Positions 36,727 through 61,909 are shown, numbered from the stretch's first letter. The stretch: 64,000 bases of DNA from Thaumasiovibrio occultus (GCA_019703815.1 AP023053.1:46995-110994); one strand, 5' to 3'. A program made the numbers and translations. Notes: generated by a model not told the origin, from the letters alone.

Positions 36727-36736
36727 GGGGGCTTTG

Positions 36737-38277: not shown

Positions 38278-38278
38278 G

Positions 38279-39714: not shown

Positions 39715-39753
39715 TCGTTACAGCGACGTCGCCCGTTTTTAGCAGGAGGTAGT

Positions 39754-40740
39754 ATGTATCTGCAGTTTTTAGGGACGTCTGCGGGTGTGCCGACCAAGCA
39801 GCGCAATGTGTCAGCACTTGCGCTGCAAGAGAGTAAAGGCAGTGACTGGTATTTAATTGATTGTGGCGAAGGCACGCAGCACCAGTTGCTGCACACCAGT
39901 TTGTCGATCAATACCTTAAAAGCGATCTTCATTACCCATGTGCATGGCGATCACTGCTATGGCTTGCTCGGTTTGCTGGCGAGCGCGGCCATGAACGGTC
40001 GTAAAGCCCCGTTGCAAGTAATCGCTCCTTCCGGCATTGCTGAGTGGTTTGCCGCGACGCAGCGCTATACCGCCTTGTATATCCCATACCCGTTGGAGTT
40101 TGTGTTGGCTGACGATCTGCCCACGCTTACGTTCGGCAATACCCAAGTGTCAATAACGCCGCTGTCGCATCGCGTGCCTTCTTACGCGTATAGCTTTTGT
40201 GAACAGCAGGTTGAGTCGCCATTAGATATCGCCAAACTGCAACGTGATGGCATCGCGAAAGGCCCGCTGTGGGGGCAGATCAAGCAAGGTAAAGACGTCA
40301 CCATTGGCGATACAACCGTTGCTGCAAGTGAGTACCTACTAGCAAGTAGACTGCCGCGAAAGGTGGTGATCGCCGGTGATAACGATAGCCCGGAGTTACT
40401 GCGTACTGCTTGTCAAAACGCGCAGCTGTTAGTGCATGAAGCAACTTATACCCAAGACGTTGCTGAGAAAGTGGGCGACAGCGTGGGCCATGCTTATGCT
40501 GGGCAGGTGGGGCAATTTGCACAAGAATGTGGCTTACCGAATTTGCTGCTGACTCACTTTAGCCCGCGCTATCAAGCTCAAGCCGAGGTGTCGCCGTCAG
40601 TGTGTGATATTGGCGCGGAAGCGCAGCAGAGTTATCAAGGTCAATTGTGGTTGGCGCAAGATTTTGCGCGTTTTCAACTGAGCCCGGAAGGGGAGTTACG
40701 CTTGTTAAGCGATGGCAGCGGTGCAAAGAGTGCAAACTAA
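39754..40740 (+). CDS. rnz: ribonuclease Z/BN (MBL-fold tRNA 3'-processing endoribonuclease)
   Basis: MYLQFLGTSAGVPTKQRNVSALAL...IDCGEGTQHQLL...HVHGDHCYGLLGLL (HxHxDH). Closely tracks E. coli RNase BN over whole length. AGGAGG SD. Confidence 0.85.
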   Translation: MYLQFLGTSAGVPTKQRNVSALALQESKGSDWYLIDCGEGTQHQLLHTSLSINTLKAIFITHVHGDHCYGLLGLLASAAMNGRKAPLQVIAPSGIAEWFAATQRYTALYIPYPLEFVLADDLPTLTFGNTQVSITPLSHRVPSYAYSFCEQQVESPLDIAKLQRDGIAKGPLWGQIKQGKDVTIGDTTVAASEYLLASRLPRKVVIAGDNDSPELLRTACQNAQLLVHEATYTQDVAEKVGDSVGHAYAGQVGQFAQECGLPNLLLTHFSPRYQAQAEVSPSVCDIGAEAQQSYQGQLWLAQDFARFQLSPEGELRLLSDGSGAKSAN

Positions 40741-45239: not shown

Positions 45240-45290
45240 GATTGATTATCTCCGTGTCGAGTTTCAACGACGCTTTAACGGAGAGAGTTG

Positions 45291-46196
45291 ATGAACGCGT
45301 TATCGCAAACCATCAATAGCGAAAAAAACGAGGAGACAGGGCAGTTATCGGAATTGCCTTTGCTGGAAATCCTCACCTTGCTTAACGAACACGACGCCAA
45401 AGCGCCGGCGGCGATCCATGCGGTGTTGCCGCAAGTTGCCGACGCGGTCTGCGTGATCGTTGAACAAATGAAAAAAGGCGGTCGCTTATTCTATGTGGGC
45501 GCAGGCACCAGCGGGCGTTTAGGTGTGCTCGATTCTGCCGAGTGTCCGCCGACGTTTGGTACCGATCCTTCTTTGGTGCAATCGATTATCGCGGGTGGTT
45601 TAGACGCCATGTTAGCGGCGGTCGAGAACATTGAAGATTGCACCGAAGCTGCGCCTGCGGAGCTAAAGCAGCGTGGCTTAACGGCTAATGATGTGGTGCT
45701 CGGCATCGCTGCTAGCGGACGCACCCCGTTCGTTGCTGCCGGTCTTGATTACGCCCGTGAAGTGGGCGCAAAAACGATTGCGTTGTCGACCCGCGGTGTC
45801 GGTTTGATTTCAGCTCAAGCAGACGTGGCGATCACCCCGGATGTTGGTCCTGAAGTGCTCGCTGGCTCGACGCGGATGAAAAGCGGCTCAGCGCAGAAAA
45901 TGCTGCTCGGTATGATCAGTACCAGCGTGATGATCTGCCTTGGCAAAGTTCACGGCAACCTTATGGTGGATGTGAAAGCTTCTAACGAAAAACTGCGCAT
46001 CCGTGCCCTACACATGGTGTGCGACATTTGTGAAATAGACGCAGACACTGCGCAATCACTCCTGACTCAAGTTAATTACAACGTGCGTGCCGCCGTTCTG
46101 ATGAACATGCTCGACATCACCGCCTCTGAGGCCCTGTCGCGCTGTGCTACGCAACCTTTTCAAACGTTGAACCATCAGTTATCTGAAGGAAAATAA
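45291..46196 (+). CDS. murQ: N-acetylmuramic acid 6-phosphate etherase
   Basis: SIS-domain blocks GGRLFYVGAGTSGRLGVLDSAECPPTFG and GSTRMKSG. 301 aa. Confidence 0.85.
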   Translation: MNALSQTINSEKNEETGQLSELPLLEILTLLNEHDAKAPAAIHAVLPQVADAVCVIVEQMKKGGRLFYVGAGTSGRLGVLDSAECPPTFGTDPSLVQSIIAGGLDAMLAAVENIEDCTEAAPAELKQRGLTANDVVLGIAASGRTPFVAAGLDYAREVGAKTIALSTRGVGLISAQADVAITPDVGPEVLAGSTRMKSGSAQKMLLGMISTSVMICLGKVHGNLMVDVKASNEKLRIRALHMVCDICEIDADTAQSLLTQVNYNVRAAVLMNMLDITASEALSRCATQPFQTLNHQLSEGK

Positions 46197-46197
46197 C

Positions 46198-47562
46198 ATG
46201 TCGAATCAAATAGAACATCTAGAGCTGATCGCTGATCACATCGAACAACATATTGGTGGCCTGGACAACGTGGCGACCTTGACCAACTGTATGACTCGCG
46301 TGCGTTTGGTGGTCAAAAACCGCTCGTTGTTTGATATGGAAGCGCTGCGTGGCTACGACGAAATCAAAGGCGTGGTTGATGCTGGCGAGCAGTTCCAAAT
46401 CATCGTTGGTATGGGCACCGCAGCCAAAGTGGCGGGCGTGCTGAACAAGCGAATGAAAAAAGGCAATATGGCAACGGACGCGCCTGTTACAACGGAAAAA
46501 CAACCTTTCTCTGTCCGTAAAATGTTTAATACTTTAGCGGCGATTTTTGTCCCGACGATCCCGGCGTTGATCGGCTGTGGCTTGGTGCTGGGCTTGGTGA
46601 ATATCTTCAACTTGGTGTCGCCAGATCTGGTCAAAGCCAATCCAGAAATCTTCAACCTGTTCGGCGTTGTTGGTAAAGCGGTCTTTGCGGTGTTGTCGAT
46701 CATGATCGGCATGAACACGGCGAAAGAGTTGCAAGCCTCGCCAGCGATTGGTGCGGTGATGGCGGCCATTTTGGCATCGCCTGCCTTGGCCGGCATTGAG
46801 CTGTTTGGCAACAAATTGGTCCCTGGCGGCGGCGGTATGTTCGCGGTGCTGTTAGTGTGTGTGTTCTCGTCGAAATTCGAGTTGTGGTTCCGCAGCATCT
46901 GTAAAGAGAGCCTTGATCTGATCTTGACCCCAACGGTGACCATTTTGGTTTCGGCATCGGTCGCGCTGTTTATCATTCAACCTATCGCGCACACCGTGAA
47001 TATGTGGCTAGGCAACTTAGTCTCGATGGCATTGCTTAATGAGTCAGCAGGCTCTGTGGCGGTGGGCGGCGTACTTGGCGGTGGCTTCTTGTTCTTGCTA
47101 CTGACCGGTTTGCACCAAGGCTTGATCCCTATTCACGCCCAAATTTTGGAAACCTTTGGCTTGAACTACCTGTTCCCAATCCTTGCGATGGGCGGTATGG
47201 GCCAAGTAGGCGCGGCAGCGTACGTGTACTTGAAAACCAAGAATGAGCGCTTGAAGAAAACCATCACCGGGGCATTGCCGGTCGGTATCTTGGGTGTGGG
47301 TGAGCCGTTACTGTTTGGTGTGTCACTGCCGTTGGGTAAAACCTTCGTTGCGGGCTGTTGCGGTGGCTTTGTTGGTGGTGCGATGATGGCGGCGTTCAAA
47401 GTGGGTATCATTATCCCATTCGGTACGGCGGGCTTGTCATTGATCCCATTGGTGGGGCCGGGCCAAATCATGCCATTTTTGATGTCGGTGGCCGGCGCGT
47501 GGATCGCAGGCTTTATCGCTTCAATGCTGTTGGGCTTTACAGACCCAGTAGAAAAAGCGTAA
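46198..47562 (+). CDS. murP: PTS N-acetylmuramic acid-specific EIIBC component
   Basis: N-terminal EIIB Cys motif NCMTRVRL. C-terminal glucose-family EIIC membrane domain. 2 nt after murQ. Confidence 0.8.
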   Translation: MSNQIEHLELIADHIEQHIGGLDNVATLTNCMTRVRLVVKNRSLFDMEALRGYDEIKGVVDAGEQFQIIVGMGTAAKVAGVLNKRMKKGNMATDAPVTTEKQPFSVRKMFNTLAAIFVPTIPALIGCGLVLGLVNIFNLVSPDLVKANPEIFNLFGVVGKAVFAVLSIMIGMNTAKELQASPAIGAVMAAILASPALAGIELFGNKLVPGGGGMFAVLLVCVFSSKFELWFRSICKESLDLILTPTVTILVSASVALFIIQPIAHTVNMWLGNLVSMALLNESAGSVAVGGVLGGGFLFLLLTGLHQGLIPIHAQILETFGLNYLFPILAMGGMGQVGAAAYVYLKTKNERLKKTITGALPVGILGVGEPLLFGVSLPLGKTFVAGCCGGFVGGAMMAAFKVGIIIPFGTAGLSLIPLVGPGQIMPFLMSVAGAWIAGFIASMLLGFTDPVEKA

Positions 47563-47641
47563 TAAGTAACTAGCGATAACAACAACCTTCGCCTCGGTTA
47601 TCCGGGGCGAAGTCGTACAAGGAAAGAGGTTCATACTGTCG

Positions 47642-48487
47642 ATGAGCGGTATTGTTAATAAAATCAAAGCCCTTTTGCAAAATGGCAACCCAAACGAGCA
47701 AAAGATCTCGCAGTATGTGATTGACCATCACTTTGATCTGTCGAAGTTAAGTGCCACCAAATTGGGCGCGGAGCTGGGCATGAGTGATTCATCGGTGATC
47801 CGCTATGCCAAGTTATTGGGCTGTAGTGGCTTTCCCGATCTCAAACTGCAGTTGGCCGCACAAGCCGCGCAATTGCCTGAAAACGATGAAAAAGAGATCT
47901 ACCACGGCATCGCTGCCAGCGATTCCACTGCGCAAATCATTGAAAAGTCGAAAGCGCTGTTTACCAGCAAAATCGAGCAGTCTATTAGCTTGATTGATGC
48001 CGACACCATTGAGCAGTGCGCGACCTTGTTGTTGGCGGCCAATAAAGTGGTGCTAACTGGTATTGGCGCATCGGCGCTGGTGGCATCCGATATTAACCAC
48101 AAGCTGATCCGCGCCGGTTTGAACATTCATTTTAACCCGGATTATCACACCCAGATCGTGCAGGCCTCGCTGTTAGCGCCTGGCGATGTGTTGATTGTGG
48201 TGTCTGCCCGCGGTAACACCCCAGAAGTGCTGTTCGCAATGGAAAAAGCCCGTGACGCTGGCGCAAAGGTGATGGCAATCACCCGCTTTGGCAAAGACAA
48301 AGTCGCGCAGTTGGCGGACTTTGTGATCCCTTATAGTAACAGTGAAGAGCATGCCCAGCTTGGTATGGTGACATCTCAGCTGTTGATGATGATTTCGTTT
48401 GACGTATTGTTTTTCAAGCTCAACACCTTGATTGATTCGAGCAGTATGAGCAAAGCGCTCAATTCGATTCGTACTATCCAAAACTGA
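47642..48487 (+). CDS. murR: RpiR/MurR family transcriptional regulator (HTH plus SIS domain)
   Basis: N-terminal HTH_6 (SATKLGAELGMSDSSVIRYAKLLGCSGF). C-terminal SIS fold. Adjacent to murQP. Confidence 0.75.
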   Translation: MSGIVNKIKALLQNGNPNEQKISQYVIDHHFDLSKLSATKLGAELGMSDSSVIRYAKLLGCSGFPDLKLQLAAQAAQLPENDEKEIYHGIAASDSTAQIIEKSKALFTSKIEQSISLIDADTIEQCATLLLAANKVVLTGIGASALVASDINHKLIRAGLNIHFNPDYHTQIVQASLLAPGDVLIVVSARGNTPEVLFAMEKARDAGAKVMAITRFGKDKVAQLADFVIPYSNSEEHAQLGMVTSQLLMMISFDVLFFKLNTLIDSSSMSKALNSIRTIQN

Positions 48488-50253: not shown

Positions 50254-50285
50254 CAGCGAATTGACACACTTGGCCGTCATAAAAA

Positions 50286-50310
50286 AAGAGTGGTGAAGAA
50301 CACCACTCTT
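50286..50310. terminator. bidirectional rho-independent terminator
   Basis: GAGTGGTG-AAGAA-CACCACTC hairpin flanked by AAAAAAA and TTTTTTGTTGG. Between convergent genes. Confidence 0.8.
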
Positions 50311-50353
50311 TTTTGTTGGCCGGAATTCGCCGCGCTTAGCGGCGATGATGGGG

Positions 50354-51757
50354 CTAGTAAGCGAATATCTTTTCGATGTTCGGATACGCGGCGTATTGGA
50401 TTTTTTGGATCATTTTAAACCGCATCGTTGACAGGGTATCGCTGTATTCAGTCTTGCCAATGACATTGGTGATCTCATTGGGATCGGCATTGAGATCGAA
50501 CAGCATTTCTTTTCCAGCGCTATCGCAGTAGTAACGATAGTTTTCATCCCTGATCGAGATTTGGCGCAGACCATGCGGTTCAAATTGCTCGGTGAGGATC
50601 ACGCTCTTGTGCTCTGTGGTTTGATCAAGCATCAAAGGAAGCAGTGATGTTCCTTGCACGTCGCGAGGTAGCGGAATGCCTGCCAGATCGAGCATGGTCG
50701 GCAACCAGTCGACACTTTCCACCAACTGCGGGTACGCTTGGCTACGCAGTTTTTTCGGATAGTGGATGATAAACGGCACATTAGTGATCACATCTTCGCC
50801 CGGCATGCCCTTTTGAACACGACCATGATCCCCGATGTATTCACCGTGATCAGAGACGTACACAATGATGGTATCGTCATACTTGCCGGTTTCTTTCAGC
50901 GTCGTAATGAGCTGACCCACACAGTCATCAACATGGCTGACCAAGGCCATGTAGTAGCGACGGATCTCTTGCCATTGTGGATCTGAAATTCCTTTGAGCT
51001 TTTCCATGACTTGCTCGTCGTCACCCACGACAGGAATCGTCATATCTTCGGCTTTGTACAAGTCGAGGAATCGCTGCGGAGGATTGACCGGAGCATGAGG
51101 CGCATAGTAGCCCGCAATACAGAAAAACGGGTTGCTGTCATTCTGATGGCGCTCAAGAAAGTCTTTGGTTAACTCTGTCACGTAGCCTGAGTGGGTCAGG
51201 TGCTCCTCGGCTTCGAAGATAAACGGCGTTTCAGGATCGCGTTTGCGATCACTGTACTCGGGTTTACCAAAGCGCTTGGCCTGCGAAGGCAAGCCAGTAC
51301 GCACTTCATTCAAGCTCTCAGGGGCAACGCTCTCGACCCACTTAGAATACGGGTCATCATAGCAACCCGGCTCATCTGAGATCACGCGCTCGTCAAAGCC
51401 GTAGTCTGGGTGGTGCTCGCAGTGATCACGAAACGAATGCGGCAGAAAATGGAGCTTACCAAAGTTCGCTGTTTTATAACCATACGGTTTCAAGCGATGC
51501 TGAATGGTGAGCAAATCTTCCGGCACGACAGGGCCATTGGTGCCAACGCCGTGGGAGCTACAGTAACGCCCAGTCAGTAATGAAACGCGGCTCGGCGTAC
51601 AGATAGGGCTTTGGGTAAAGAACTTGTCGAACTTCGCCCCTTGGTTAGCCAGCATATCAATGTTTGGGGTTACGGCAATATTATTGCCGTAACAACCTAA
51701 GGAGTCTTTACGTTGCTGATCGGTAAAGATGAGCAAGATATTAGGACGGTTAATCAT
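50354..51757 (-). CDS. cytoplasmic Cys-type (formylglycine) sulfatase
   Basis: LLIFTDQQR start with no signal peptide. Signature SPICTPSRVSLLTGRY (C-x-P-x-R). GxxKxH region (NFGKLH). 467 aa. Confidence 0.85.
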   Translation of the reverse strand: MINRPNILLIFTDQQRKDSLGCYGNNIAVTPNIDMLANQGAKFDKFFTQSPICTPSRVSLLTGRYCSSHGVGTNGPVVPEDLLTIQHRLKPYGYKTANFGKLHFLPHSFRDHCEHHPDYGFDERVISDEPGCYDDPYSKWVESVAPESLNEVRTGLPSQAKRFGKPEYSDRKRDPETPFIFEAEEHLTHSGYVTELTKDFLERHQNDSNPFFCIAGYYAPHAPVNPPQRFLDLYKAEDMTIPVVGDDEQVMEKLKGISDPQWQEIRRYYMALVSHVDDCVGQLITTLKETGKYDDTIIVYVSDHGEYIGDHGRVQKGMPGEDVITNVPFIIHYPKKLRSQAYPQLVESVDWLPTMLDLAGIPLPRDVQGTSLLPLMLDQTTEHKSVILTEQFEPHGLRQISIRDENYRYYCDSAGKEMLFDLNADPNEITNVIGKTEYSDTLSTMRFKMIQKIQYAAYPNIEKIFAY

Positions 51758-51766
51758 GATATCTCC

Positions 51767-53098
51767 CTACGCTTTACTTTCAGATGCCGCGATATTGGCG
51801 TTCAGCGTTGGTGCTTCTTCTTTTGCATCAATTAGTTCACCCGGCTCTGCCACTTTGTTGGCGTAGCGGATGAAGGGTAGATACACCATCACACCAATCG
51901 CGAGTCCGCCAAGTGCTACCAGGCCAGCTTGCCATGAGCCACCTGACGCTAAGAATGCACCAAAGCCTACCGGTGTCGTCCAAGGAACCACAATGCCCAG
52001 CGGCGGCACGAAGCCAATAAATGTCATGAATGCGGCAAAGCCCAGCATTAATGTCGGTGCCAGGACGAAGGGAATCGCGAGCAGCGGGTTAAGAATGATT
52101 GGAAGGCCAAATACCGCCGTTTCACAAATGTTGAAAATACATGGGACAATCGCAATCTTCGCCACTGTGCGGTAGTGAGCACGACGTGATGCAATCAAGA
52201 TAGCAATCACTAGCGCAAGAGATGCACCAGCACCACCGACGTTGGCGTACAAGTCGTACGATAGCCACGTGACATCATGCGGGAGATCCCACATCGACAT
52301 GCCTTCAGCAACACCACGCAGGTTGTCATCTTGCATTGGGCCAAACAATAGCGAACGCACGCCGCCAAGGACCGCGCCACCGTGGATCCCGAATAGCCAT
52401 AGCGTGTTCTGGATGATGTCGAGGGTTAAAATGCCCCAAACGTTGCCTGCCACATTCGATAGCGGCGCTTGGATCAGCAGGGTGATCATATCTGGCATTG
52501 AGGTGCTGAACATTGAGAATGCACCAGAGAGCGCGGCAAACGAGGATAAGGTTAACGTTGCAGGCAATAGCTCTGCGAATGATTTGGCGACCGCCGGGGG
52601 TACTTGGTCCGGCATTTTAATTTTGAGTTTTTCGCTGTCCGTCAAGGCGTTGAAAAGGCGTGTCGCCATGATAGCAATGAGCACCGCTGAAAACAGACCG
52701 CGTGAACTGGTGTAGTTCATTGAAAAGTCTGGCGTCATGATGAAGAAAGCGGCCAATGAAACCAGTCCGGTACCGACAGGATCTTTGCCTTCTTTCATGG
52801 AAATCAATGAGGCCAATTTAAAGCAAGCAAACAGGGCGAACATGTTTAATGTGCCCTTTACCAACACTTGAGAGACGTCGTTGAGATAGGTCACCATCGC
52901 ATGCTCTTTACCGAGGAAAGCCGGTAAACCGAACATGTTATTGAGTGCCAATTGCGTAAACAGGATGAAAAACGATGCCGGCATAATGATAGGCAACGTA
53001 CTGATGAAGGTATCTCTGACAGAAGAGACGTATTTGTTATTGGCAAAGGCGTTGATCTTAGCGCCATGTTTATTGAACAGGTTTTCTAATATTTTCAT
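51767..53098 (-). CDS. PTS lactose/cellobiose-family EIIC permease
   Basis: 443 aa, about 10 TM. Family-typical N-terminus and conserved mid-protein segments. Ends 9 nt before sulfatase start (same operon). Confidence 0.85.
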   Translation of the reverse strand: MKILENLFNKHGAKINAFANNKYVSSVRDTFISTLPIIMPASFFILFTQLALNNMFGLPAFLGKEHAMVTYLNDVSQVLVKGTLNMFALFACFKLASLISMKEGKDPVGTGLVSLAAFFIMTPDFSMNYTSSRGLFSAVLIAIMATRLFNALTDSEKLKIKMPDQVPPAVAKSFAELLPATLTLSSFAALSGAFSMFSTSMPDMITLLIQAPLSNVAGNVWGILTLDIIQNTLWLFGIHGGAVLGGVRSLLFGPMQDDNLRGVAEGMSMWDLPHDVTWLSYDLYANVGGAGASLALVIAILIASRRAHYRTVAKIAIVPCIFNICETAVFGLPIILNPLLAIPFVLAPTLMLGFAAFMTFIGFVPPLGIVVPWTTPVGFGAFLASGGSWQAGLVALGGLAIGVMVYLPFIRYANKVAEPGELIDAKEEAPTLNANIAASESKA

Positions 53099-53312
53099 AG
53101 TTTCACTTCACGCTAAAAGAATGTGAGATACAGCAGGGAGGATGTTAGATCATCGAAATGAAAACAATGAAACACTTTTTCATTGAGTTTCATTAAATGT
53201 GATCCAATACAGAAACTGGGACGGTTTTGGGTATTATTCCCGCGTGATGGCGATGATTAAAAAGAAGCGCTTCGCCGCTCGCGCGGCGAAAAGACAGAGA
53301 AAGATGAAAGGG

Positions 53313-54377
53313 TTAGTTCTTACGATGCAGGCTGCGTGGCAACACGTCGTTGTCGGTGTGCGGGCAGTATTTTGCGACTGATTCACGGATCACCAACTTA
53401 CCCGTTAGGCGTTTTACTTCGGAGTCATGCGTTTCATCAGCCGACTCTGCGCGGGTAATACAGATATCAATGATTTCCTCAACCATTGAGGAGAGCGGCA
53501 TTTCAACCGTGGTAAGGCGTGGGAAGGTGTACTGGGCAAGCTCAGAGCCTTCTAAGCTGATCACCGAGACATTTTTAGGAATTTCATAGCCAAATTGACG
53601 CAAGGTTGCCATGACCTCTGCGGCCATTTGATCTGTCGCGGTGATCACCGCGCTAAAGTCACCAATAAACCCGGACAACTCCGTGGCGGCTGCGGCCCCA
53701 TCTTCAATATTCTCGATAATCAACTGCGCATTGAATGGCATGGAGCGTCGCTGGTGGCCGTGTTTAAAGCCTTCGATGTAAGAAATTGATTGTGAGCCCG
53801 AGCCGGAGATCAGTGCAATCTCGGTATGCTTGTGCGCCATTAGAAAATTGCACGCTGACGCACACGCCGCAGCATGATCATAGCCGAAGGCGAATTGGCT
53901 CAACTCTTCTTTCGCACTGAACGAGAGAATACGTTGGCTGTCGACGTCAAAATCTTGGATGTCACTGGCTTTCAGCATGGGATCAATCAGCACAATGGTT
54001 TCACAACCGCTGCCTAAAAGCACTGAAAGATAAGACTTTTCCTGAAATGCGTTATTGCAACTGTTGAACAGTTGTAGCTGTAGCCCTTTGGAGTGGGCGT
54101 ATTGCTGCGCCGTGTTGTAAAACTGGCCAAAGCTGAGTGACGACATCTGAGAAACAATCATCCCGAGGGTTCCCGGTTTGACGGCGGCCGTGCTGGTGGC
54201 ATGTGCCCGATCAGATAGCAATGCACTGGTTTGCTCAGGGTTATAGCCAAGTGAACGCGCCGCTTTTAGGACGGCTTGGCGTGTTTCTTCTTTCACTTTG
54301 GCATTGCCACTGAATACGCGCGATACCGTCGCTTTCGAGACGTTTGCTAACGAAGAGACATCATTGATCGTGGTCAT
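53313..54377 (-). CDS. LacI family transcriptional regulator
   Basis: MTTINDVSSLANVSKATVSRVFSG HTH from ATG 54377 (AGGAAA SD). Periplasmic-binding-fold effector domain. Confidence 0.8.
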   Translation of the reverse strand: MTTINDVSSLANVSKATVSRVFSGNAKVKEETRQAVLKAARSLGYNPEQTSALLSDRAHATSTAAVKPGTLGMIVSQMSSLSFGQFYNTAQQYAHSKGLQLQLFNSCNNAFQEKSYLSVLLGSGCETIVLIDPMLKASDIQDFDVDSQRILSFSAKEELSQFAFGYDHAAACASACNFLMAHKHTEIALISGSGSQSISYIEGFKHGHQRRSMPFNAQLIIENIEDGAAAATELSGFIGDFSAVITATDQMAAEVMATLRQFGYEIPKNVSVISLEGSELAQYTFPRLTTVEMPLSSMVEEIIDICITRAESADETHDSEVKRLTGKLVIRESVAKYCPHTDNDVLPRSLHRKN

Positions 54378-54687
54378 ACTTTTCCTGTCATTAACCCGTT
54401 GATTGGCGCTGGGAGAGTTTCCTTCAGTGACCGTCTCTGAGGTTTCATGTTTTCGTGTTTGGTTTTTCATTAGTATATCAAATAAAGGAAACTAAGGAGA
54501 AGTCAATAATATGTAAAATAACAATAACATATAGTTCAACAGCTTGTATATGACACGGCTCATCACCGACTTGAACGCATAAATAGTGTGCCTAACATCT
54601 CAAATTACACCAAAACCGCTCATTGTTTTCAAATGTTTTCACTATCCTGAAATTAATGAAACAAACATTCAAGCCATAGGAAACGTT

Positions 54688-54984
54688 ATGTACAAGATTA
54701 TGCTGTGCTGCTCTGCAGGTATGTCGACCAGTATGTTGGTTCGTAAGATGGAACAAGCGGCTGAAGCCAATAATATTTCAGCAACGATTGAGGCGCATGG
54801 CGCGGATCTGTTTGATCAAAAGCAAGGTGAATACGATGTCATTCTTCTGGGGCCGCAAGTGGGCTACATGAAGGAAAGCTTGGCGGCGCGTGCAGAAGGT
54901 AAACCGGTAGAGGTCATCAACCCGATGGATTACGGCATGCAAAACGGTGAAAAAGTGCTGAACTGGGCGATCTCCCTGATCTAA
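54688..54984 (+). CDS. PTS lactose/cellobiose-family EIIB
   Basis: MYKIMLCCSAGMSTSMLV with phosphorylated Cys motif. 98 aa. AGGAAA SD. Confidence 0.8.
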   Translation: MYKIMLCCSAGMSTSMLVRKMEQAAEANNISATIEAHGADLFDQKQGEYDVILLGPQVGYMKESLAARAEGKPVEVINPMDYGMQNGEKVLNWAISLI

Positions 54985-54997
54985 CGAGGCGAACATT

Positions 54998-55312
54998 ATG
55001 AATCAAGTAGATCTCGAAGAATTGGTGATGGGCATCATCGTGAATGCTGGTATGGCACGCAGCCTGAGCATGGAAGCCCTTCACGCGGCCAAGAAAGGTA
55101 ACTTTGTTGAGGCGCAAGAAAAGCTGGATTTTGCACGCAGCGCAGCTAATGAAGCGCACGCGGTGCAAACAACGTTGATCGAACAAGATCAAGGCGAAGG
55201 CAAAGTCAAAATGACCTTGGTGCTAGTGCACGCGCAAGATCATCTGATGACGTCCATGCTATGCCGAGAATTGGTTGAGGAAATGATCCAGCTTTATAAG
55301 CGATTAGCGTAA
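54998..55312 (+). CDS. PTS lactose/cellobiose-family EIIA
   Basis: 104 aa helical protein. IVNAGMARSLSMEALHAAKKG...AHAVQTTLI (conserved His) typical of EIIA-Lac. Confidence 0.8.
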   Translation: MNQVDLEELVMGIIVNAGMARSLSMEALHAAKKGNFVEAQEKLDFARSAANEAHAVQTTLIEQDQGEGKVKMTLVLVHAQDHLMTSMLCRELVEEMIQLYKRLA

Positions 55313-55376
55313 CGAAATATCGGGGGCGCTGGCCCCTTTTCAACCTCTTCCATTTTCACCACTCGAGTAATCCAAC

Positions 55377-56297
55377 ATGAGAATCGGTTTTGATATCGGC
55401 GGCACAAAGATTGAAACACGTGTGCTGAACCAACAGGGTGCGGAAATGTTCCGAGCCCGCGTCGCGACGCCTCACGACTACGACACCTTTATTCAAACTA
55501 TCGCTGCACAAGTTAAAGAAGCAGAGCAAGCGGTGGGGGTGTCTTGCTCAATCGGGATCGGTTTACCGGGGGCGGTATGTCCTCATACGCAATTAATGAA
55601 AAACGCGAACTGTACGTTTCTCAACGGTCACGACTTACTGGCCGATCTGGCGCGTGAATTAGGTAAGGCGGTTTACATTGATAACGACGCCAATTGTTTT
55701 GCGTTATCTGAAGCGCGGGATGGTGCTGGCAAAGGTGGCAACGTGGTGTTTGGTGCCGTGCTCGGTACCGGGTGTGGTGGCGCATTGGTGGTCAATCAGC
55801 AGCTGATCACGGGTCGCAATGCGATTGCCGGGGAGTGGGGACACAATCCGTTGCCGGGTTATACACCGGAGATCGACGGACCGGCGCGCGCTTGCTACTG
55901 CGGCCGTGAAAACTGTATTGAAACGTTTATTTCCGGCACTGGGTTTAGCAAAGGCTTTAACCAACGTTTTGGTACCAGTTTGACGACGCCGCAGTTAATT
56001 GCGCAGGCCGAGGAAGGACAAATCAATGCCGTCCACGCCTATCGGTTGTTAGTCGATCAAGTAGCGCGCAGTGTGGCGAGCATTATCAACGTGGTGGATC
56101 CCGATACGTTCGTGATTGGCGGCGGGCTTTCCAACATCCCAGGGTTAATTGAGGCCGTTGAGAAAGAGACATATCGATACGTGTTCTCACCAGAAGCCAA
56201 AATTAGCGTGAAACAAGCGCAGTACGGTGATGCCAGTGGGGTGCGTGGTGCGGCGTGGTTAGCACCCTCGCCACAACCCTCAACCGAGACACGCTGA
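55377..56297 (+). CDS. ROK family sugar kinase, N-acetylglucosamine-kinase (NagK)-like
   Basis: MRIGFDIGGTKIE, DNDANCFALSEA, GEWGH, zinc motif CYCGRENCIE. Collinear with E. coli NagK. Confidence 0.75.
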   Translation: MRIGFDIGGTKIETRVLNQQGAEMFRARVATPHDYDTFIQTIAAQVKEAEQAVGVSCSIGIGLPGAVCPHTQLMKNANCTFLNGHDLLADLARELGKAVYIDNDANCFALSEARDGAGKGGNVVFGAVLGTGCGGALVVNQQLITGRNAIAGEWGHNPLPGYTPEIDGPARACYCGRENCIETFISGTGFSKGFNQRFGTSLTTPQLIAQAEEGQINAVHAYRLLVDQVARSVASIINVVDPDTFVIGGGLSNIPGLIEAVEKETYRYVFSPEAKISVKQAQYGDASGVRGAAWLAPSPQPSTETR

Positions 56298-57202
56298 TGT
56301 TTCTGTGTATCGATATCGGTGGTTCTGCTATCAAACTCGCGGTGCTAGATGCGCAGGCCAACATACTGGAAAAGGGCAGTATTGTTAGTCCGCGCTCTAG
56401 CATTGACGAGTTTTTTGAGGCGATCACCCCGTTTGTAATGACGCAAATCAAAGCCTATCCCATCGAGGGGATTGCGGTGAGTACGTGCGGCGCGGTGGAT
56501 TGTGAAACCGGCATCATTCATGGCTCTAGCGCACTGCCTTATCTTCACGGCCCCGCTATTAACGATATGTTTTCTGAGCGGTTCGGGTTGCCTTGCGAAC
56601 TTGAAAATGATGCCAATTGTGCCGCGCTGGGTGAGTTATGGCGTGGAGAAGCCGCGCAAGTTAGCGATTGCTGTCTTGTCGTTATTGGTTCTGGTATTGG
56701 CGGCTCGGTGGTGCTCAATCGTGCGGTGACGCAGGGCAGTCAGTTACATCGTGGTGAGTTCGGCTACATGATCGCCAGCTATGACAACGGCGAACCACTG
56801 ACATTCAGTGATGTGGCCTCTACACGGGGCTTGATTGAAGCGGCGGCGAAGGCGATTAATGCGCCCAAAGAAAACCTCACGGGTTTGCGGGTGTTTGAGA
56901 TGGCCGATCAAGGAAGTCAGGCGCTGCAAGCGGTGATTGAACGCTGGTATCAGCACCTCGCGACGGGCCTGTTCAATATCCAATATTGCTTAGATCCTGA
57001 AGTGATATTACTGGGCGGCGCGATCAGTGCCCGGCCTGATCTGATTTCCCATTTAGATCGGCATATTGACGTGATTTTGCAAAAGCAGCCGGTGTGTAAA
57101 ATCCGCCCCACATTGAAAGTGTGCTCTGCCGGCAATGATGCCAACCTGATTGGCGCGCTTCATCATTTCTTAACTCGTCGCGCCTTAACTCGCCGTGCTT
57201 AG
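56297..57202 (+). CDS. second ROK family protein (kinase or regulator-less ROK)
   Basis: MFLCIDIGGSAIKLAVLD, ENDANCAALGE, GEFGYM. ATGA overlap with upstream stop. Confidence 0.7.
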   Translation: MFLCIDIGGSAIKLAVLDAQANILEKGSIVSPRSSIDEFFEAITPFVMTQIKAYPIEGIAVSTCGAVDCETGIIHGSSALPYLHGPAINDMFSERFGLPCELENDANCAALGELWRGEAAQVSDCCLVVIGSGIGGSVVLNRAVTQGSQLHRGEFGYMIASYDNGEPLTFSDVASTRGLIEAAAKAINAPKENLTGLRVFEMADQGSQALQAVIERWYQHLATGLFNIQYCLDPEVILLGGAISARPDLISHLDRHIDVILQKQPVCKIRPTLKVCSAGNDANLIGALHHFLTRRALTRRA

Positions 57203-57249
57203 GCAAGTAACGACGCACTTGAGAAAATAATTAATAGTATAGAGGTCTT

Positions 57250-58647
57250 ATGACAACGTATTCATTCCCTGAAGGGTTCCTTTGGGGCGCTGCGGCTTCG
57301 GGTATTCAAACTGAAGGCACAAAAAACAAAATTCACGAATCGATTTGGGATCTGTGGCACCGTGAGCAACCGGAGCGATTCTTTCGTGAAATAGGTCCAG
57401 AGACTGTCTGTGAGACCTATGACCGCTATAAAGACGACGTGCAGTTGATGAAGCAGGTGGGCTTCAACTCCTTCCGTACCTCGATTCAATGGTCACGCTT
57501 GATCAAAGATCTTGAAACGGGAGAGCCTTGCGAAGATGCGCTTGCGTTTTATACCGCGTACTTTGAGGAGATGATCGCTAACGGCATTACGCCGATGATC
57601 AACTTGTACCATTTCGATATGCCAGCAACGCTGCAGACCCAATATGGCGGTTTTGAATCCAAGCATGTTGTTGAACTGTTCGTAAAATTTGCTCGAACGG
57701 CCTTCAAACACTTTGCACACTTGGTGAAGCATTGGATCACCTTCAACGAGCCGATTGTGCCAGTGGAAGGCGGTTATCTTTACGACTTCCATTATCCGTG
57801 TAAGAAAGACAGTAAACTCGCGGTACAGGTCGGCTTCAATATCACTGTCGCACACGCAAAAACCGTGTTGGCGTTTCGCGAGATGGGCTGTGATGGGCAA
57901 ATCGGTACAGTGCTCAATCTCACGCCAAGTTATACCCGCGACGATCGTGCGGAAGACCAACAAGCCGCGTACTACGCAGATCTGCTCTTTAACCGCAGCT
58001 TTTTAGACCCAATGGTGCTAAATGAGTACCCGAAAGAGCTGTGCGAGCTGCTTGATAAACACGGATTGCTTCCAGAGTTCAATGCAGATGAGATGGCCGC
58101 CATTCGCACAGCGAAAGTTGATTTCTTGGGCGTGAATTACTATGTACCGCGCCGCGTTAAAGCGCGTGAAGCCGAATACGAGCTGGACTATTTTACTCCG
58201 GAGTATTACTTCGAAAATTACCTCAACCCAACCGGTCGATTTAACCCTTACCGCGATAATAACGAGATCTTGCCGACGGCGATTTACGATATCGCGCAGA
58301 ACATTCAGCACAATTACGGCAATATCCCATGGTTCTTAGCGGAAATTGGTATTGCGATGGATGAGGGCTCGGAAGGGAACGCGCTTGAAGATGGCATGAT
58401 TGATGACAGCTTCCGTACAGAACTGATGGTTGAACACCTAGTACAGTTGCATCATGCGATTGATGCCGGCGCTAACTGTTTCGGTGTACATCAATGGACC
58501 TTCATTGATAACTGGTCGTGGATCAATTCATTTAAACGCCGTTACGGATTTTATCGTTTAGATCTAGCGACCGGCCAACGTATTCCAAAACGCCATGGTC
58601 AATGGTTTAAAGCGCTGGCTGAAACGAATGCGTTTGTCGCCCCTTAA
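57250..58647 (+). CDS. GH1 family 6-phospho-beta-glycosidase
   Basis: FLWGAAASGIQTEG N-terminus. Acid/base ITFNEP. Nucleophile region present as FLAEIGIA (E-I-G instead of E-N-G). 465 aa. Confidence 0.85.
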   Translation: MTTYSFPEGFLWGAAASGIQTEGTKNKIHESIWDLWHREQPERFFREIGPETVCETYDRYKDDVQLMKQVGFNSFRTSIQWSRLIKDLETGEPCEDALAFYTAYFEEMIANGITPMINLYHFDMPATLQTQYGGFESKHVVELFVKFARTAFKHFAHLVKHWITFNEPIVPVEGGYLYDFHYPCKKDSKLAVQVGFNITVAHAKTVLAFREMGCDGQIGTVLNLTPSYTRDDRAEDQQAAYYADLLFNRSFLDPMVLNEYPKELCELLDKHGLLPEFNADEMAAIRTAKVDFLGVNYYVPRRVKAREAEYELDYFTPEYYFENYLNPTGRFNPYRDNNEILPTAIYDIAQNIQHNYGNIPWFLAEIGIAMDEGSEGNALEDGMIDDSFRTELMVEHLVQLHHAIDAGANCFGVHQWTFIDNWSWINSFKRRYGFYRLDLATGQRIPKRHGQWFKALAETNAFVAP

Positions 58648-58857
58648 TTGATCGTCTGTTGTATCGAAGCCATTTAACGTAGGTTAAATGGCTTTTCTCG
58701 TTTAGGCGCCGCAATGGCAATGGCAATGGTACTGGAAGTCGTCACGTTGCGGTGATCACAAAGTGTCAGGGTCAAAAAGAAAATCTAACAACGCGGTAGC
58801 CTTTAAAGCTATCATGCGGCTTGTTGATAAAGCGATGAATTAAGAGGGATTATCGCA

Positions 58858-59328
58858 ATGACAAAGACGCAGATGGTACTGGGTTGTTTAATTTTTTCTA
58901 TTGCGGTGCTGGGCTTTACCTTGCAACCGACGTATCAAGCCAACTTTTGGAAAATTAGCCCCAACGGTGTCGGCTATATTCGGTTAGACCCTTATGTCTC
59001 GTTTAAGATTGAGGGGATCGCTCGGCCAGATAAGCAGCATTTCGTTTTGAGTTATATGGATAAGCGACGTGTTTGCTTGTACGACGAAAATAGCCGAGAG
59101 CACACCCTGACGACCATGCAGTTGAATCGCACATCCAGTGAAGCCGTCGTATTGTGTTCGCCGCAGGGCTATCAGGAAAAAGGGATCTGGTTTGATGTCG
59201 ACACGCTAGCCAGTTTCATTGGCCCTGAGTCTTTGGTGATTGATGGCTATACCGTGCCGATGAGTCGGTTTGAAGACATTGCGCGACGCTCGTTTGCGCA
59301 AAGCCAAAGCCGGTTCGAGAGATCATAA
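58858..59328 (+). CDS. hypothetical exported protein
   Basis: MTKTQMVLGCLIFSIAVLGFTL hydrophobic N-terminus. 156 aa. Confidence 0.5.
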   Translation: MTKTQMVLGCLIFSIAVLGFTLQPTYQANFWKISPNGVGYIRLDPYVSFKIEGIARPDKQHFVLSYMDKRRVCLYDENSREHTLTTMQLNRTSSEAVVLCSPQGYQEKGIWFDVDTLASFIGPESLVIDGYTVPMSRFEDIARRSFAQSQSRFERS

Positions 59329-59370
59329 AAGGTAGATAGCCTTATAGTAACGATGACGTTACTGATAGAA

Positions 59371-59395
59371 AAATGCCCTCACATGAGGGCATTTT
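59371..59395. terminator. bidirectional rho-independent terminator
   Basis: ATGCCCTC-ACAT-GAGGGCAT hairpin with AAA upstream and TTTTTTTTA downstream. Between convergent genes. Confidence 0.8.
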
Positions 59396-59428
59396 TTTTA
59401 CCTGGCTAGTTGCGATGCTGCATCGCCA

Positions 59429-61909
59429 TTATTGGTGGCTTTTCGCCAGATGATAGACCCGCAACTGTTGCTCGAACGCCTCTAGTGTTATATCTCCGGT
59501 AAAGGTTAACGTGCGCGGCGCATCAGGCAGCAAGGTAAAGCTGGCATCGCTAAAGCGGCCAAGGCCATCAACTTCCGGCTGGACAAAGAAGGCCGGCTTG
59601 TCGGTGGTCAAGGTCAGCGCGATCTCGCCCTTGTCATTGTGTGCGCACGCGATCTCAATATTGGCCTGTGGCAACGGGAGACGTTTATACAGATCGCCAA
59701 ACCAGTTATTGGTGATTGTGCCGTGGGCGCTGTTGAGTTTGACGTAGAAGAAGCCTCGCTCAGCGACGATATCGTCAAGCGGGTAAGCCCATGCGATGTC
59801 ATTGCCATCATCGGCTACTGTGTGGGCGATCTCCCAACGCTGGATCGTGTTGCCGTCCCAATCGAGCCACACCACTTCGCCATTAAATTCACGGGCTTGG
59901 TGTTCATCGTTGATCAGGTGCAAGGTTAGCGCGTTATCGGTGGTGACAAACGCAGCCAGTTGCGGCGCAAAAAAATGTTTTGCATGGTAGTGCAGCTGTT
60001 TCCAGCGCCCGTTGTGCTCGATGCTCGACCATGAGCTGACCGGCCAGCAGTCATTGAGCTGCCAGTACAAGATCCCGCGACAGACCGGTTTATTGGCGCG
60101 CCAATATTCACTCGCGGTTTTGATCGCCAGCGCTTGCTGTACTTGGCTCAGATACAGCATGTTGTCAAAGCTCGACGGAAAGCGGAAATAGCGGGTAAAC
60201 ATCTCAGTCATGATACTGTTGCCGCGGCCATTTTTCTGGTGTTGCTCGAACGTTGGCGAGGTAACGTTCCAGTCTTGTGGCTCGGCAAAGGTTTTGACGG
60301 TTGGCAGCGACGGCCAAGACTGGTAACCGAACTCACTGCAAAAACGCGGCTTAATGCTGTGGTACGCATCGAACGATTTGCCAGAATGCCACACATCCCA
60401 AAAGTGCATGTCGCCTTTGTTGTCATCGTGCCATGCGTCGCCAAAATCCAGCTCGCCATTGCACGGTGAGCTCGCCCAAAAACGGCGCGTTGGATCTTCG
60501 CGCTCAACCACCTCTTGCAACACGCGATTGAGTCGGTCGTAATTCACCACGTATTTTTCGCGATTGGTGCGAGATTCAGGATACCAGCCAATCGCGCCAA
60601 TCACTTCGTTATCACCACACCACAGAGCAAGGGAGGGGTGATCGCTCAGGCGACGAACTTGCTCTTCGACTTCTTGCGCCACATCGGCCAAAAACTCCGG
60701 CGTGGACGGATAAAGTGCACAAGCAAACATCAAATCTTGCCATACCAACAGGCCGAGCTCGTCGCACAAGCGGTAGAACACATCGCGCTCGTACATGCCG
60801 CCGCCCCACACGCGGATCATATTCATGTTGGCCGCTTTCGCATCGTCTAACAGTTGGCGGTAGCGCTCTGGGGTGTGCTGACTTGGCATCGCATCGAGCG
60901 GGATCCAGTTAGCACCTTTCGCCATGATCGCTTTGCCGTTGACCACAAACGTCATCGCCGAACCGGCGTCATCGACTTGCGTGTTGAGCGCTAATTCGCG
61001 CAGACCGATCCGTTTTTCGATACTGTGTTGTTCATGGTGATCTTCCGCGCTAGTGGACTCATAGGTGCCGCCATCAAACAGGGTCACGCTCAGGCTGTAC
61101 AGCGGTTGCTCACCATAACCGGCAGGCCACCAACGTTGTGGCTCGAAGATCGGCAGCTGCCAGCGTACTTGTTGGCTAACCGGGCTTTCGGTTTGATGGA
61201 TCACTTGACCGCTAGGATCGCGCAGCTCAAGCACCAACAGGGCGTCGTGCTCAACGTCAATCAGATCGCACTTGGCGTTGACCGTCAAAATACACAGCTC
61301 GTCTTGCCATGTTTGCTCGGTACGCACTTCGGTTAAGCGCACATGGTGGATAGGGGTGAGCACAATCGAGTCATAAATCCCGCTTACCAACAAGCAAATG
61401 CCCCAGTCCCACCCCGCATGACATTGGGTTTTACGCAGGGTGTTCATGTGCGGAATTTGGTTGTTCCCTACCGCCCAAGGCACCGGGAAGGGCAGTTTTT
61501 CCGCGCGCTGTTTGGCTTCGATGTCGGCACGTTGCAGTTCAATCGTAATGGTGTTTTCGCCTTCTACCAAGTAAGGGCGAATATCAACGCGATAGCGACG
61601 GAACATGTTGCTGCACCCCATCACCCATTGACCGTTAATCGAGATCTTGGCGACGGTATCGACCATGCTCAAGGTGAGATCGACCTGTTTGGCGTCTAAC
61701 AAGGCGCTATCGGCATTGAACGTGCGATTGAGTGTCCAATTTTTCTCGCCCACCCACTGCACGTCACGTTCGTTACAGCCGTGGTAAGGATCGGGGATCA
61801 GCGCTGCCGCGAGTAGGGCGGAGTGCACATCGCCGGGCAAGGTAATAGGAATGTTGATGTGATCATTATCGGGAGAGCTTAACTGCCATTGGCCGTCGAG
61901 TGTCATCAT
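59429..61909 (-). CDS. GH2 family glycosidase, beta-mannosidase-like
   Basis: 826 aa. N-terminal PGDVHSALLAAALIPDPYHGCNERDVQWVGEKNWTLNRTF, typical of GH2 beta-mannosidases. GWDWG motif. TIM-barrel acid/base and nucleophile regions. Confidence 0.7.
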   Translation of the reverse strand: MMTLDGQWQLSSPDNDHINIPITLPGDVHSALLAAALIPDPYHGCNERDVQWVGEKNWTLNRTFNADSALLDAKQVDLTLSMVDTVAKISINGQWVMGCSNMFRRYRVDIRPYLVEGENTITIELQRADIEAKQRAEKLPFPVPWAVGNNQIPHMNTLRKTQCHAGWDWGICLLVSGIYDSIVLTPIHHVRLTEVRTEQTWQDELCILTVNAKCDLIDVEHDALLVLELRDPSGQVIHQTESPVSQQVRWQLPIFEPQRWWPAGYGEQPLYSLSVTLFDGGTYESTSAEDHHEQHSIEKRIGLRELALNTQVDDAGSAMTFVVNGKAIMAKGANWIPLDAMPSQHTPERYRQLLDDAKAANMNMIRVWGGGMYERDVFYRLCDELGLLVWQDLMFACALYPSTPEFLADVAQEVEEQVRRLSDHPSLALWCGDNEVIGAIGWYPESRTNREKYVVNYDRLNRVLQEVVEREDPTRRFWASSPCNGELDFGDAWHDDNKGDMHFWDVWHSGKSFDAYHSIKPRFCSEFGYQSWPSLPTVKTFAEPQDWNVTSPTFEQHQKNGRGNSIMTEMFTRYFRFPSSFDNMLYLSQVQQALAIKTASEYWRANKPVCRGILYWQLNDCWPVSSWSSIEHNGRWKQLHYHAKHFFAPQLAAFVTTDNALTLHLINDEHQAREFNGEVVWLDWDGNTIQRWEIAHTVADDGNDIAWAYPLDDIVAERGFFYVKLNSAHGTITNNWFGDLYKRLPLPQANIEIACAHNDKGEIALTLTTDKPAFFVQPEVDGLGRFSDASFTLLPDAPRTLTFTGDITLEAFEQQLRVYHLAKSHQ

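Follow-up and report, generated by a model that had tools for sequence, protein, structure and literature searches.

A phosphotransferase locus of Thaumasiovibrio occultus with a cytoplasmic sulfatase gene beside its permease gene, and its possible role in the use of sulfated β-mannan

In Bacillus subtilis, glucomannan is utilised by means of the gmuBACDREFG operon (Sadaie et al. 2008, summarised in PMC10766802). In Streptococcus pneumoniae, the island SPH1922-SPH1930 encodes an EIIC of the phosphotransferase system (PTS), a ComA-like protein, EIIB, EIIA, another EIIC, a sulfatase, a sulfatase-modifying enzyme and TauE; a ROK regulator is encoded divergently (PMC3302838). This island aids fitness in mice; no sulfatase activity on 4-methylumbelliferyl sulfate was detected and the substrate was unknown to the authors (PMC3283741), who left a cooperation of PTS and sulfatase open (McAllister et al. 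2012, PMC3283741). Here, a PTS locus with an adjacent sulfatase gene is described, which lies at positions 50354-58647 of a stretch of 64,000 nucleotides, the window, from Thaumasiovibrio occultus (GCA_019703815.1, AP023053.1:46995-110994). By analogy, gmu can be regarded as the closest characterised system for how the locus would work. On balance, the locus appears to be a gmu-like PTS locus for β-mannan or glucomannan oligosaccharides that is extended to sulfated ones such as those of Codium mannan.

The Codium polymer, a 4-linked β-D-mannan sulfated at C-2 and less at C-6 (PMC7550628), is a natural candidate substrate. The β-mannan polysaccharide utilisation loci (PULs) of marine Flavobacteriia have been classed as targeting non-sulfated mannan (PMC6298971), and the sulfated mannan pathways reported so far concern diatom α-1,3-mannan (PMC13063451). 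Putative glycosaminoglycan (GAG) loci that combine a Man-type PTS with sulfatase genes have been reported without characterisation (PMC9067506). Beyond these and the pneumococcal island, no β-mannan or gmu-type locus with a sulfatase was found in the literature on sulfatases with PTS, mannan or Vibrio. A preliminary description of the locus, made from the sequence alone, had called a PTS pathway with a cytoplasmic sulfatase undescribed for the standard chb/cel/gmu systems. As far as the literature was covered, this holds for β-mannan and gmu-type systems, but not in general, as the island with a lac-type PTS, sulfatase, maturase and TauE has been known genetically from S. pneumoniae since 2012 (PMC3283741, PMC3302838).

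The eight genes of the preliminary description were all found at their coordinates in an open reading frame (ORF) listing, and Pfam and NCBIfam scans upheld their families as well as the divergent layout. The minus strand carries the genes for a LacI-family regulator (53313-54470; PF00356 and PF13377), an EIIC of the lactose/cellobiose family (51767-53098; TIGR00410), which is the sole EIIC of the locus, and a Cys-type S1 sulfatase of 467 amino acids (aa) (50354-51757; PF00884 and SGSH_C). On the plus strand follow EIIB (54688-54984, 98 aa; PF02302, 83 bits) and EIIA (54998-55312; PF02255, 118 bits), both of lac/cellobiose type and above the Pfam cutoff, a ROK sugar kinase of Mak/NagK type (ROK1, 55377-56297; PF00480), a ROK kinase of BglK type (ROK2, 56297-57202; NF042998) and a GH1 6-phospho-β-glycosidase (57250-58647; PF00232, 353 bits). 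For EIIB, the ATG at 54688 is favoured over the mechanically assigned GTG at 54586, given the ortholog length of 98 aa and the upstream AGGAAAC. ROK2 most likely starts with the ATG at 56297, which overlaps the stop codon of ROK1 by 1 nt according to the ORF translation.

EIIC and the sulfatase gene are separated by 9 nt (GGAGATATC, 51758-51766, minus strand), exactly the gap described before, and this junction contains the Shine-Dalgarno sequence GGAG. Behind the sulfatase gene, an intrinsic terminator was located at approx. 50281-50315 (minus strand). Its fold of -25.6 kcal/mol (z = -6.8) was equalled in 0 of 200 shuffles and, given the flanking A-run and T-run, it may be bidirectional. The lacI gene is followed by its own intrinsic terminator (53270-53291, minus strand; 9-bp stem with 6 G-C pairs, then a T-run) and is thus not co-transcribed with EIIC and the sulfatase gene. 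With a conserved operator at one end and a strong terminator at the other, the EIIC-sulfatase pair is predicted to be a separate transcription unit. The EIIB-EIIA-ROK-ROK-GH1 operon ends with a terminator at 58666-58695 (plus strand; 13-bp stem).

The sulfatase matched PF00884 with 184 bits (cutoff 25) over the entire profile and additionally contains the SGSH_C subdomain. Its sequence is 100% identical to a UniRef entry of T. occultus, one of the Vibrionaceae. Its motif C53-T-P-S-R57 is of the Cys-type. S56 and R57 are invariant in an alignment of 23 family members, C53 and P55 are conserved to at least 90%, and the enzyme retains all family-invariant residues. Since the catalytic domain begins as early as residue 5 and an upstream extension of the ORF is impossible, the sulfatase has no signal peptide. 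The description as a signal-peptide-less Cys-type sulfatase was therefore borne out. A homolog search yielded 4053 matches, of which the best 120 were listed; the signal-peptide-less family spans Clostridia, Spirochaetes, Planctomycetes and others. Compared with the orthologous locus of Photobacterium rosenbergii (L081), the nonsynonymous divergence (dN) is 0.11 for the sulfatase, 0.07 for EIIC and 0.09 for GH1; owing to saturation, dS is above 2 or undefined, and dN alone is informative. By this measure, the sulfatase gene appears to be conserved about as strongly as those of EIIC and GH1.

The genomic context was compared by a scan with the sulfatase alignment, one genome per species, which gave 80 loci; further contexts with Pfam annotation came from exact-protein lookups. 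In nine of ten distinct Vibrionaceae ortholog loci (69-100% identity), the sulfatase gene directly follows that of EIIC, namely, in the window, L081, L041 (Vibrio ishigakensis), L001/L087, L002, L003, L020, L089 and L172. The only ortholog locus without this pairing is the one of V. algarum (L088). Where genes were called, the gaps measure 9-15 nt. In the window, L081 and L041, the sulfatase-linked EIIC is the only one of the locus. In L002, L003, L020 and L089, the EIIB-EIIA-GH1-ROK operon has a second EIIC with 24-26% identity to the sulfatase-linked EIIC, and the latter looks like an added permease there.

A maturase and an exporter belong to several of these loci. The radical-SAM/SPASM protein of L081 passes the equivalog model TIGR03942 of the anaerobic sulfatase-maturing enzyme (anSME) with 495 bits (cutoff 349), and homologs occur in L041, L002, L089 and L172. 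Behind GH1, L081 encodes this maturase, a TauE-family anion exporter and a class I phosphomannose isomerase (PMI); L041 has the same anSME-TauE-PMI block directly after GH1. TauE is present in L081, L041, L001/L087, L002, L089 and L172.

The pairing was also found in Erysipelotrichaceae, in three genomes and several gut metagenome contigs. There, the order is EIIC-sulfatase-RpiR-radical SAM/SPASM with a gap of 14 nt or an overlap of 8 nt between the first two genes. These EIICs are 29-31% identical to the window EIIC and thereby no nearer to it than 80 ordinary EIICs (30-37%). The latter came from a reverse metagenome scan that started from the sulfatase-linked EIICs, and 0 of these 80 EIIC loci (30-37% identity) had a sulfatase gene within 6 kb. 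The two clades of PTS-linked sulfatases share 45-47% identity with each other, while each is 50-56% identical to unlinked sulfatases of Clostridia among the listed matches. A single EIIC-sulfatase cassette spread by horizontal transfer was rejected on the grounds of the low EIIC identity and of the sulfatase clades being nearer to unlinked enzymes. The pairing rather appears to have arisen more than once, as far as these identities tell, and being rare and apparently recurrent, it argues for functional coupling over inheritance of one cassette.

Two of the gut metagenome contigs differ in their neighbouring genes. In L082 (8664-15013), EIIC, sulfatase, RpiR and the maturase candidate are followed by a TreC-like GH13 phospho-α-glucosidase (571 bits), and in L085 (6482-13489), a GH31 α-glucosidase precedes the same module. 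This suggests PTS uptake of a sulfated α-glucoside in gut Firmicutes.

Both promoters of the T. occultus locus contain a candidate operator with four ATGAAA/TTTCAT half-sites, the one of EIIC at 53158-53193 and the one of EIIB at 54625-54662, in the latter with the opposite order (ATGAAAC at 54656-54662). Both operators are kept in P. rosenbergii (L081) and V. ishigakensis (L041). The tandem half-site pattern occurs three times in the window compared to 0.09 expected occurrences, with the EIIC promoter accounting for two of these. A LacI homolog adjoins the EIIC-sulfatase pair in L081, L041, L002, L003, L020, L089 (split) and L172. We infer that one regulator, most simply the LacI protein encoded between both operons, controls both. 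Together with the conserved and recurrent linkage and the maturase and TauE genes of the orthologs, the shared operator supports the earlier proposal that a cytoplasmic sulfatase is tied to a PTS-dependent β-glycoside pathway, which would imply that a sulfated β-linked oligosaccharide is catabolised.

Some further elements of the intergenic regions were considered. A CRP-like site, TGTGC-N6-TCTCA, lies upstream of the EIIB operon (54587-54602, plus strand) and is conserved in the same three species; it is a resemblance to the consensus only. Upstream of EIIC, no CRP site is claimed, as the conserved GATCACA does not fit the spacing of TGTGA-N6-TCACA. Extra ATGAAA/TTTCAT half-sites were seen just past the lacI stop codon in L081 (8393-8420) and L041 (8393-8425), whereas the window has none at this place. 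These copies could be a further operator or a relic. A GC hairpin, GGGGCGCTGGCCCC followed by TTTT, was located between EIIA and ROK1 (55322-55340, plus strand) where it had been placed before (55323-55340). Its proposed role as an attenuator did not hold up. With -13.3 kcal/mol and z = -1.83 (10 of 200 shuffles equally stable), the fold only marginally beats shuffled sequences; it was not called by the terminator scan, and it is absent from the two closest orthologous loci, L081, with a gap of 4 nt at this place, and L041. A conserved attenuator was thus rejected and the significance of the hairpin is doubtful.

EIIC scored 290 bits on TIGR00410, the model of lac/cellobiose-family IIC proteins (cutoff 236), and aligns to ChbC (3QNQ) across residues 18-418. 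H239 and E326 align with H250 and E334 of ChbC and are invariant in six sulfatase-linked EIICs; in ChbC, these residues presumably adjoin the phosphorylated sugar hydroxyl. EIIA reached 142 bits on the ChbA-like model NF007768 (cutoff 148). ROK1 had been labelled NagK-like. Its assignment to the ROK family stands, but the manno(fructo)kinase model PRK09557 (Mak, 342 bits) outscores NagK (259 bits), both under their curated cutoffs, and the nearest PDB entries are NagK-type. It is likely a hexose (mannose/glucose) kinase. For ROK2, NF042998 (BglK) was the best model with 183 bits, and the β-glucoside kinase of Listeria (PDB 4htl) matched with 137 bits, so that it is likely a β-disaccharide 6'-kinase. 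An enzyme of this type fits a step in which a trisaccharide or a longer chain has been cleaved once and the disaccharide that is left is re-phosphorylated.

The closest structures to GH1 are the SPy1599-type 6-phospho-β-glycosidases 4b3k and 5foo (443 bits), and the curated NCBIfam 6-phospho models score it under their cutoffs. In eight sequences, N166-E167-P168 and the nucleophile E365 are invariant, as are W422-S423-W424, K429 and R431-Y432-G433. The latter residues form the pattern WSW...K.RYG, which we take to be the phosphate-binding Ser/Lys/Tyr signature that replaces the NFEW Glu of non-phospho enzymes. The GH1 clade of the locus (window 57250-58647; L081 3152-4549; L020 18864-20258) has AEIG with Ile after the nucleophile, whereas GH1 paralogs and solved homologs have SENG at this position. 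The EIG variant may reflect a different glycone, e.g. mannose-6-phosphate instead of glucose-6-phosphate. Convergent with the GH1 operon, a GH2 β-mannosidase homolog is encoded at 59429-61909 (minus strand). It contains the Pfam mannosidase Ig domains, and its top PDB matches are all β-mannosidases (459-479 bits, full length). It probably belongs to the same pathway. The sulfatase, GH1 and GH2 are all without evident signal-peptide N-termini.

The relatives of the locus point to β-mannan. PMI is encoded in five ortholog loci (L081, L041, L002, L020 and L089). In L081, a GH26 and a LamB-type porin follow the sulfatase; GH26 was also found in L020, LamB in L041 and a GH5 with CBM10 in L089. The N-termini of GH26 and LamB in L081 and of GH5 in L089 resemble signal peptides. 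In V. algarum, the sulfatase ortholog (69% identical) follows an ABC solute-binding protein and is accompanied by permeases, a cellobiose-2-epimerase-like protein (307 bits, under the curated cutoff of 800), MalK, LacI, phosphomannomutase and GH130. A homolog of the window GH2 (59%) adjoins it. Judged by these families, the cluster would be an epimerase/phosphorylase pathway for β-mannan. In the same region of L088 (11596-15941), the sulfatase-adjacent LacI is split into two called genes and the GH2 homolog (13273-15150) is uncalled; it may be a pseudogene or a gap in gene calling. Outside the Vibrionaceae, GH130 lies near a sulfatase homolog in metagenome-assembled genomes (MAGs) of Clostridiaceae (L006), Christensenellales (L010) and Sphaerochaetaceae (L014, L018), of which L006, L014 and L018 additionally carry a 2-epimerase and an ABC binding protein. 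GH2 β-mannosidase-like genes flank the homolog in L007 and L034. None of the ortholog loci contains NagA/NagB, GH18/GH20, polysaccharide lyase, GH88 or Kdu genes. Among the substrates that had been listed for the locus, glucomannan or β-mannan fragments are thus favoured by PMI, GH26, GH5, GH2 and GH130/2-epimerase, while chitobiose and GAG or mucin fragments are disfavoured. The same sulfatase is found with PTS and with ABC importers. The feature that it recognises is therefore not the phosphate added by the PTS, which argues for a sugar sulfate ester.

The following scheme for substrate and order of steps, including phosphorylation of a sulfated sugar and activity of the sulfatase in this strain, is a prediction. 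In relatives, secreted GH26 or GH5 enzymes and a LamB-type porin, whose genes are outside the content of the window, would bring β-manno-oligosaccharides to the periplasm. EIIC and the divergently encoded EIIB and EIIA would import the oligosaccharide and phosphorylate O-6 of its non-reducing residue. The Cys-type sulfatase, presumably translated from the same mRNA as EIIC, would strip sulfate esters in the cytoplasm, which are at C-2 and C-6 in the β-1,4-mannan of Codium. GH1 would then free hexose-6-phosphate. The BglK-like ROK2 would re-phosphorylate the shortened β-disaccharide and the Mak/NagK-like ROK1 the free hexose, and the cytoplasmic GH2 would cut unphosphorylated β-mannosides. Freed sulfate may be exported by TauE in relatives, and the LacI repressor would co-regulate the two operons through the four-half-site operators in both promoters. 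A 6-O-sulfate should block 6-O-phosphorylation by the PTS or the BglK-like kinase, and a 2-O-sulfate should remove the 2-hydroxyl needed by retaining β-glycosidases. Either sulfate would stall the GH1 route until it is removed, which would explain a cytoplasmic sulfatase beside the permease. More tentatively, it is proposed that marine Vibrionaceae could import sulfated β-manno-oligosaccharides by a lac/cellobiose-family PTS permease dedicated to them, with desulfation taking place in the cytoplasm only.

Several observations weigh against sulfated β-mannan as substrate. The wider sulfatase family does not seem to be uniformly mannan-linked: a homolog with 53% identity is accompanied by genes for an ABC transporter, GH30 and another sulfatase, one with 54% identity by URO-D and AraC genes, and the modules of Erysipelotrichaceae accompany α-glucosidase-type enzymes (TreC-like GH13 or GH31). 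The GH5 of the relatives could be a cellulase. Some relatives carry CE4 and aldo-keto reductase genes that the scheme does not explain; a CE4 deacetylase lies inside the second PTS operon of L089 and L002, and an aldo-keto reductase consistently follows a GH1 paralog beside the LacI/TauE/EIIC-sulfatase block in L089 (5367-6356) as well as in L002, L003 and L172. We know of no lac/cellobiose-family EIIC that carries a sulfated sugar. Another sulfated β-glycoside might instead be imported and desulfated in the cytoplasm, of the chitobiose/GlcNAc-type, from GAG or mucin, a β-glucan or an aryl or flavonoid β-glucoside; sulfated flavone glucosides occur in seagrasses. The resemblance of ROK1 to NagK, the ChbA model as nearest to EIIA and the CE4 deacetylase of L089 and L002 agree with this, and GH1 together with a BglK-like kinase is a generic β-glucoside set in many EIIC loci. 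The closest solved structure to the sulfatase, 7oz8 (216 bits over residues 4-453), is probably BT1918 and belongs to a Bacteroides thetaiotaomicron set that includes this enzyme, a sulfatase for GlcNAc-3S of the putative SulfAtlas subfamily S1_46; as a distant relative, it says little about the specificity of the enzyme. PTS and sulfatase genes are combined in the putative GAG loci, too (PMC9067506). However, the ortholog loci lack the NagA/NagB, GH18/GH20, lyase, GH88 and Kdu genes named above, and PMI, GH26, GH2 β-mannosidase and GH130/2-epimerase recur instead. Furthermore, under an assumed numbering offset, the window enzyme appears to have Asn where BT1918 has its N-acetyl-recognising Tyr, and this Asn74 is family-invariant; marine S1_46 sequences lack the N-acetyl-recognition residues (bioRxiv 10.1101/2021.07.23.453482). 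A sulfated β-glycoside other than mannan is thus considered unlikely. It is very improbable that the sulfatase acts in sulfur scavenging or in the general hydrolysis of sulfate esters and has no more than its operon in common with the transporter, or that it is a formylglycine enzyme that cleaves the PTS product at a phosphate or phosphonate ester. The fold is common to phosphonate monoester hydrolases, with sub-threshold matches to PehA and PMH, and the homologous pneumococcal arrangement was inactive on 4-methylumbelliferyl sulfate (PMC3283741), but the EIIC pairing is conserved and apparently arose more than once, the shared operator presumably co-regulates it with the sugar operon, TauE anion exporters co-occur, and the same ortholog is found on an ABC system whose import yields no sugar phosphate.

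The proposed desulfation also depends on maturation of the sulfatase, and here the window itself speaks against it. Following a suggestion of the preliminary description, a maturase gene was sought, and neither anSME nor the formylglycine-generating enzyme (FGE) nor a remnant of either was found within the 64 kb. The window is also without TauE, PMI, mannanase and porin genes, and there are no remnants of TauE or PMI. In comparison with L081 (1-3093), the anSME-TauE-PMI block is absent after GH1; the window contains at 58648-59428 instead the terminator and an ORF of 156 aa that matches no family and whose N-terminus is hydrophobic, and then the convergent GH2 gene. No Thaumasiovibrio anSME was among the best 120 homologs, which were filled by anSMEs of Enterobacterales and Vibrio at at least 53% identity. 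If the block has been lost, the sulfatase of T. occultus might be inert or decaying, and the locus, with its single EIIC, might serve unsulfated β-manno- or gluco-oligosaccharides. Yet the ORF is intact with all family-invariant residues, its dN is as low as those of EIIC and GH1, and the junction coupled by the Shine-Dalgarno sequence is retained. The maturase may also be encoded elsewhere, given that the best 120 anSME homologs all had at least 53% identity. Cys-type sulfatases are matured in E. coli even when its known anSME homologs are missing, so that a local dedicated maturase is not strictly required. An inert sulfatase is therefore regarded as quite unlikely, and import of sulfated β-manno-oligosaccharides followed by desulfation in the cytoplasm is kept as the preferred reading.

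Other features of the window are less related to the locus. Just upstream, a cluster at 45288-48487 probably serves the PTS-dependent recycling of N-acetylmuramic acid; it encodes a MurQ-like SIS etherase, a MurP-like PTS EIIBC and a regulator of the RpiR/MurR type. An RNA repair cluster (27291-35093) comprises the sigma-54 activator RtcR (27291-28877, minus strand), the ligase RtcB (32653-33960) and the cyclase RtcA (33945-35093), with an SPFH/Band-7 protein (31416-32579) between RtcR and RtcB. The region 36000-40000 has a low GC content (0.43-0.46 compared to approx. 0.50 elsewhere) and contains short ORFs without family match as well as a fragment that resembles Endonuclease V (37356-37955); this region may have been acquired horizontally as an island. 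Unrelated glycan genes at 10170-12575 and 18734-23318 encode a GH18 chitinase with CBM5/12 and GlgB branching and GlgX-like debranching enzymes.

Work on carbohydrate sulfatases has dealt almost wholly with Bacteroidota, whose periplasmic or surface enzymes desulfate glycans before import. In a 2023 review of carbohydrate sulfatases, the terms cytoplasm, intracellular and Firmicutes are all absent. The locus and its relatives suggest the opposite order, with import first (and phosphorylation in the case of this locus), desulfation inside and export of the sulfate. If this is true, it would be the first catabolic route for a sulfated β-mannan and name a bacterial pathway for a green-algal polymer. 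It would further provide the first substrate class for the large family of signal-peptide-less S1 sulfatases and the first case of sulfated sugar uptake by a PTS. In that case, Vibrionaceae, Erysipelotrichaceae and pneumococci would repeatedly have arrived at the EIIC-sulfatase-maturase(-TauE) module as a solution. With its complete downstream pathway, the locus would also be a tractable, non-pathogenic model and a handle on the PTS-sulfatase virulence island of pneumococci.

Compared with gmu, the locus has the lac/cellobiose-family EIIB, EIIA and EIIC, the GH1 6-phospho-β-glycosidase and a ROK kinase in common. PMI and a secreted GH26 mannanase of gmu also occur in the closest relatives of the locus, but neither is within the window. 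The logic would be the same: manno- and gluco-disaccharides are imported and phosphorylated, the phospho-glycoside is cleaved, and mannose-6-phosphate is converted to fructose-6-phosphate. However, gmu is without sulfatase, anSME and TauE, whereas the locus has a sulfatase gene with EIIC, and its relatives have anSME and TauE. The regulator of gmu is the GntR-type GmuR and that of the locus LacI-type; GntR genes accompany the second PTS in L089 and L172. Unlike in gmu, EIIC is in a divergent operon of its own, and a second, BglK-like kinase and a GH2 β-mannosidase are present. Another difference to gmu is that the host is a Gram-negative bacterium; relatives of the locus encode a LamB-type porin.

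The pathway of mannobiose 2-epimerase and GH130 mannosyl-glucose phosphorylase with an ABC importer has the same predicted substrate class (PMC12871903). The window uses the PTS/GH1 route and is without ABC importer, epimerase and GH130, while the published pathway is without a sulfatase. BT1918 from Bacteroides thetaiotaomicron has the S1 fold and a formylglycine motif like the window sulfatase. It differs in being a Ser-type enzyme of a PUL that acts before cytoplasmic import, whereas the window enzyme is Cys-type and cytoplasmic, with the Tyr apparently replaced by Asn. Closer to the model in its principle is the ats2 cluster of Bifidobacterium breve, for which Egan et al. reportedly described growth on GlcNAc-6-sulfate in 2016. 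As in the model, it is said to combine an intracellular sulfatase, an adjacent anSME and a dedicated transporter for an imported sulfated sugar; it reportedly differs by a monosaccharide as substrate, a non-PTS transporter, its source in host mucin and having no glycoside-hydrolase pathway.

The pneumococcal island resembles the locus in a lac-type PTS EIIC directly before the sulfatase, in a ROK protein and, as in the relatives, in a maturase and TauE. Its sulfatase was absent among the best 120 homologs (at least 44% identity) of either PTS-linked sulfatase query. The island contains a second EIIC gene, a ComA-like gene and the gene of a ROK repressor, is without GH1, GH2 and mannan genes, and is discussed in the context of host glycans and virulence. 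Unlike the island, the locus of T. occultus offers a complete set of downstream catabolic genes, from which a substrate can be predicted.

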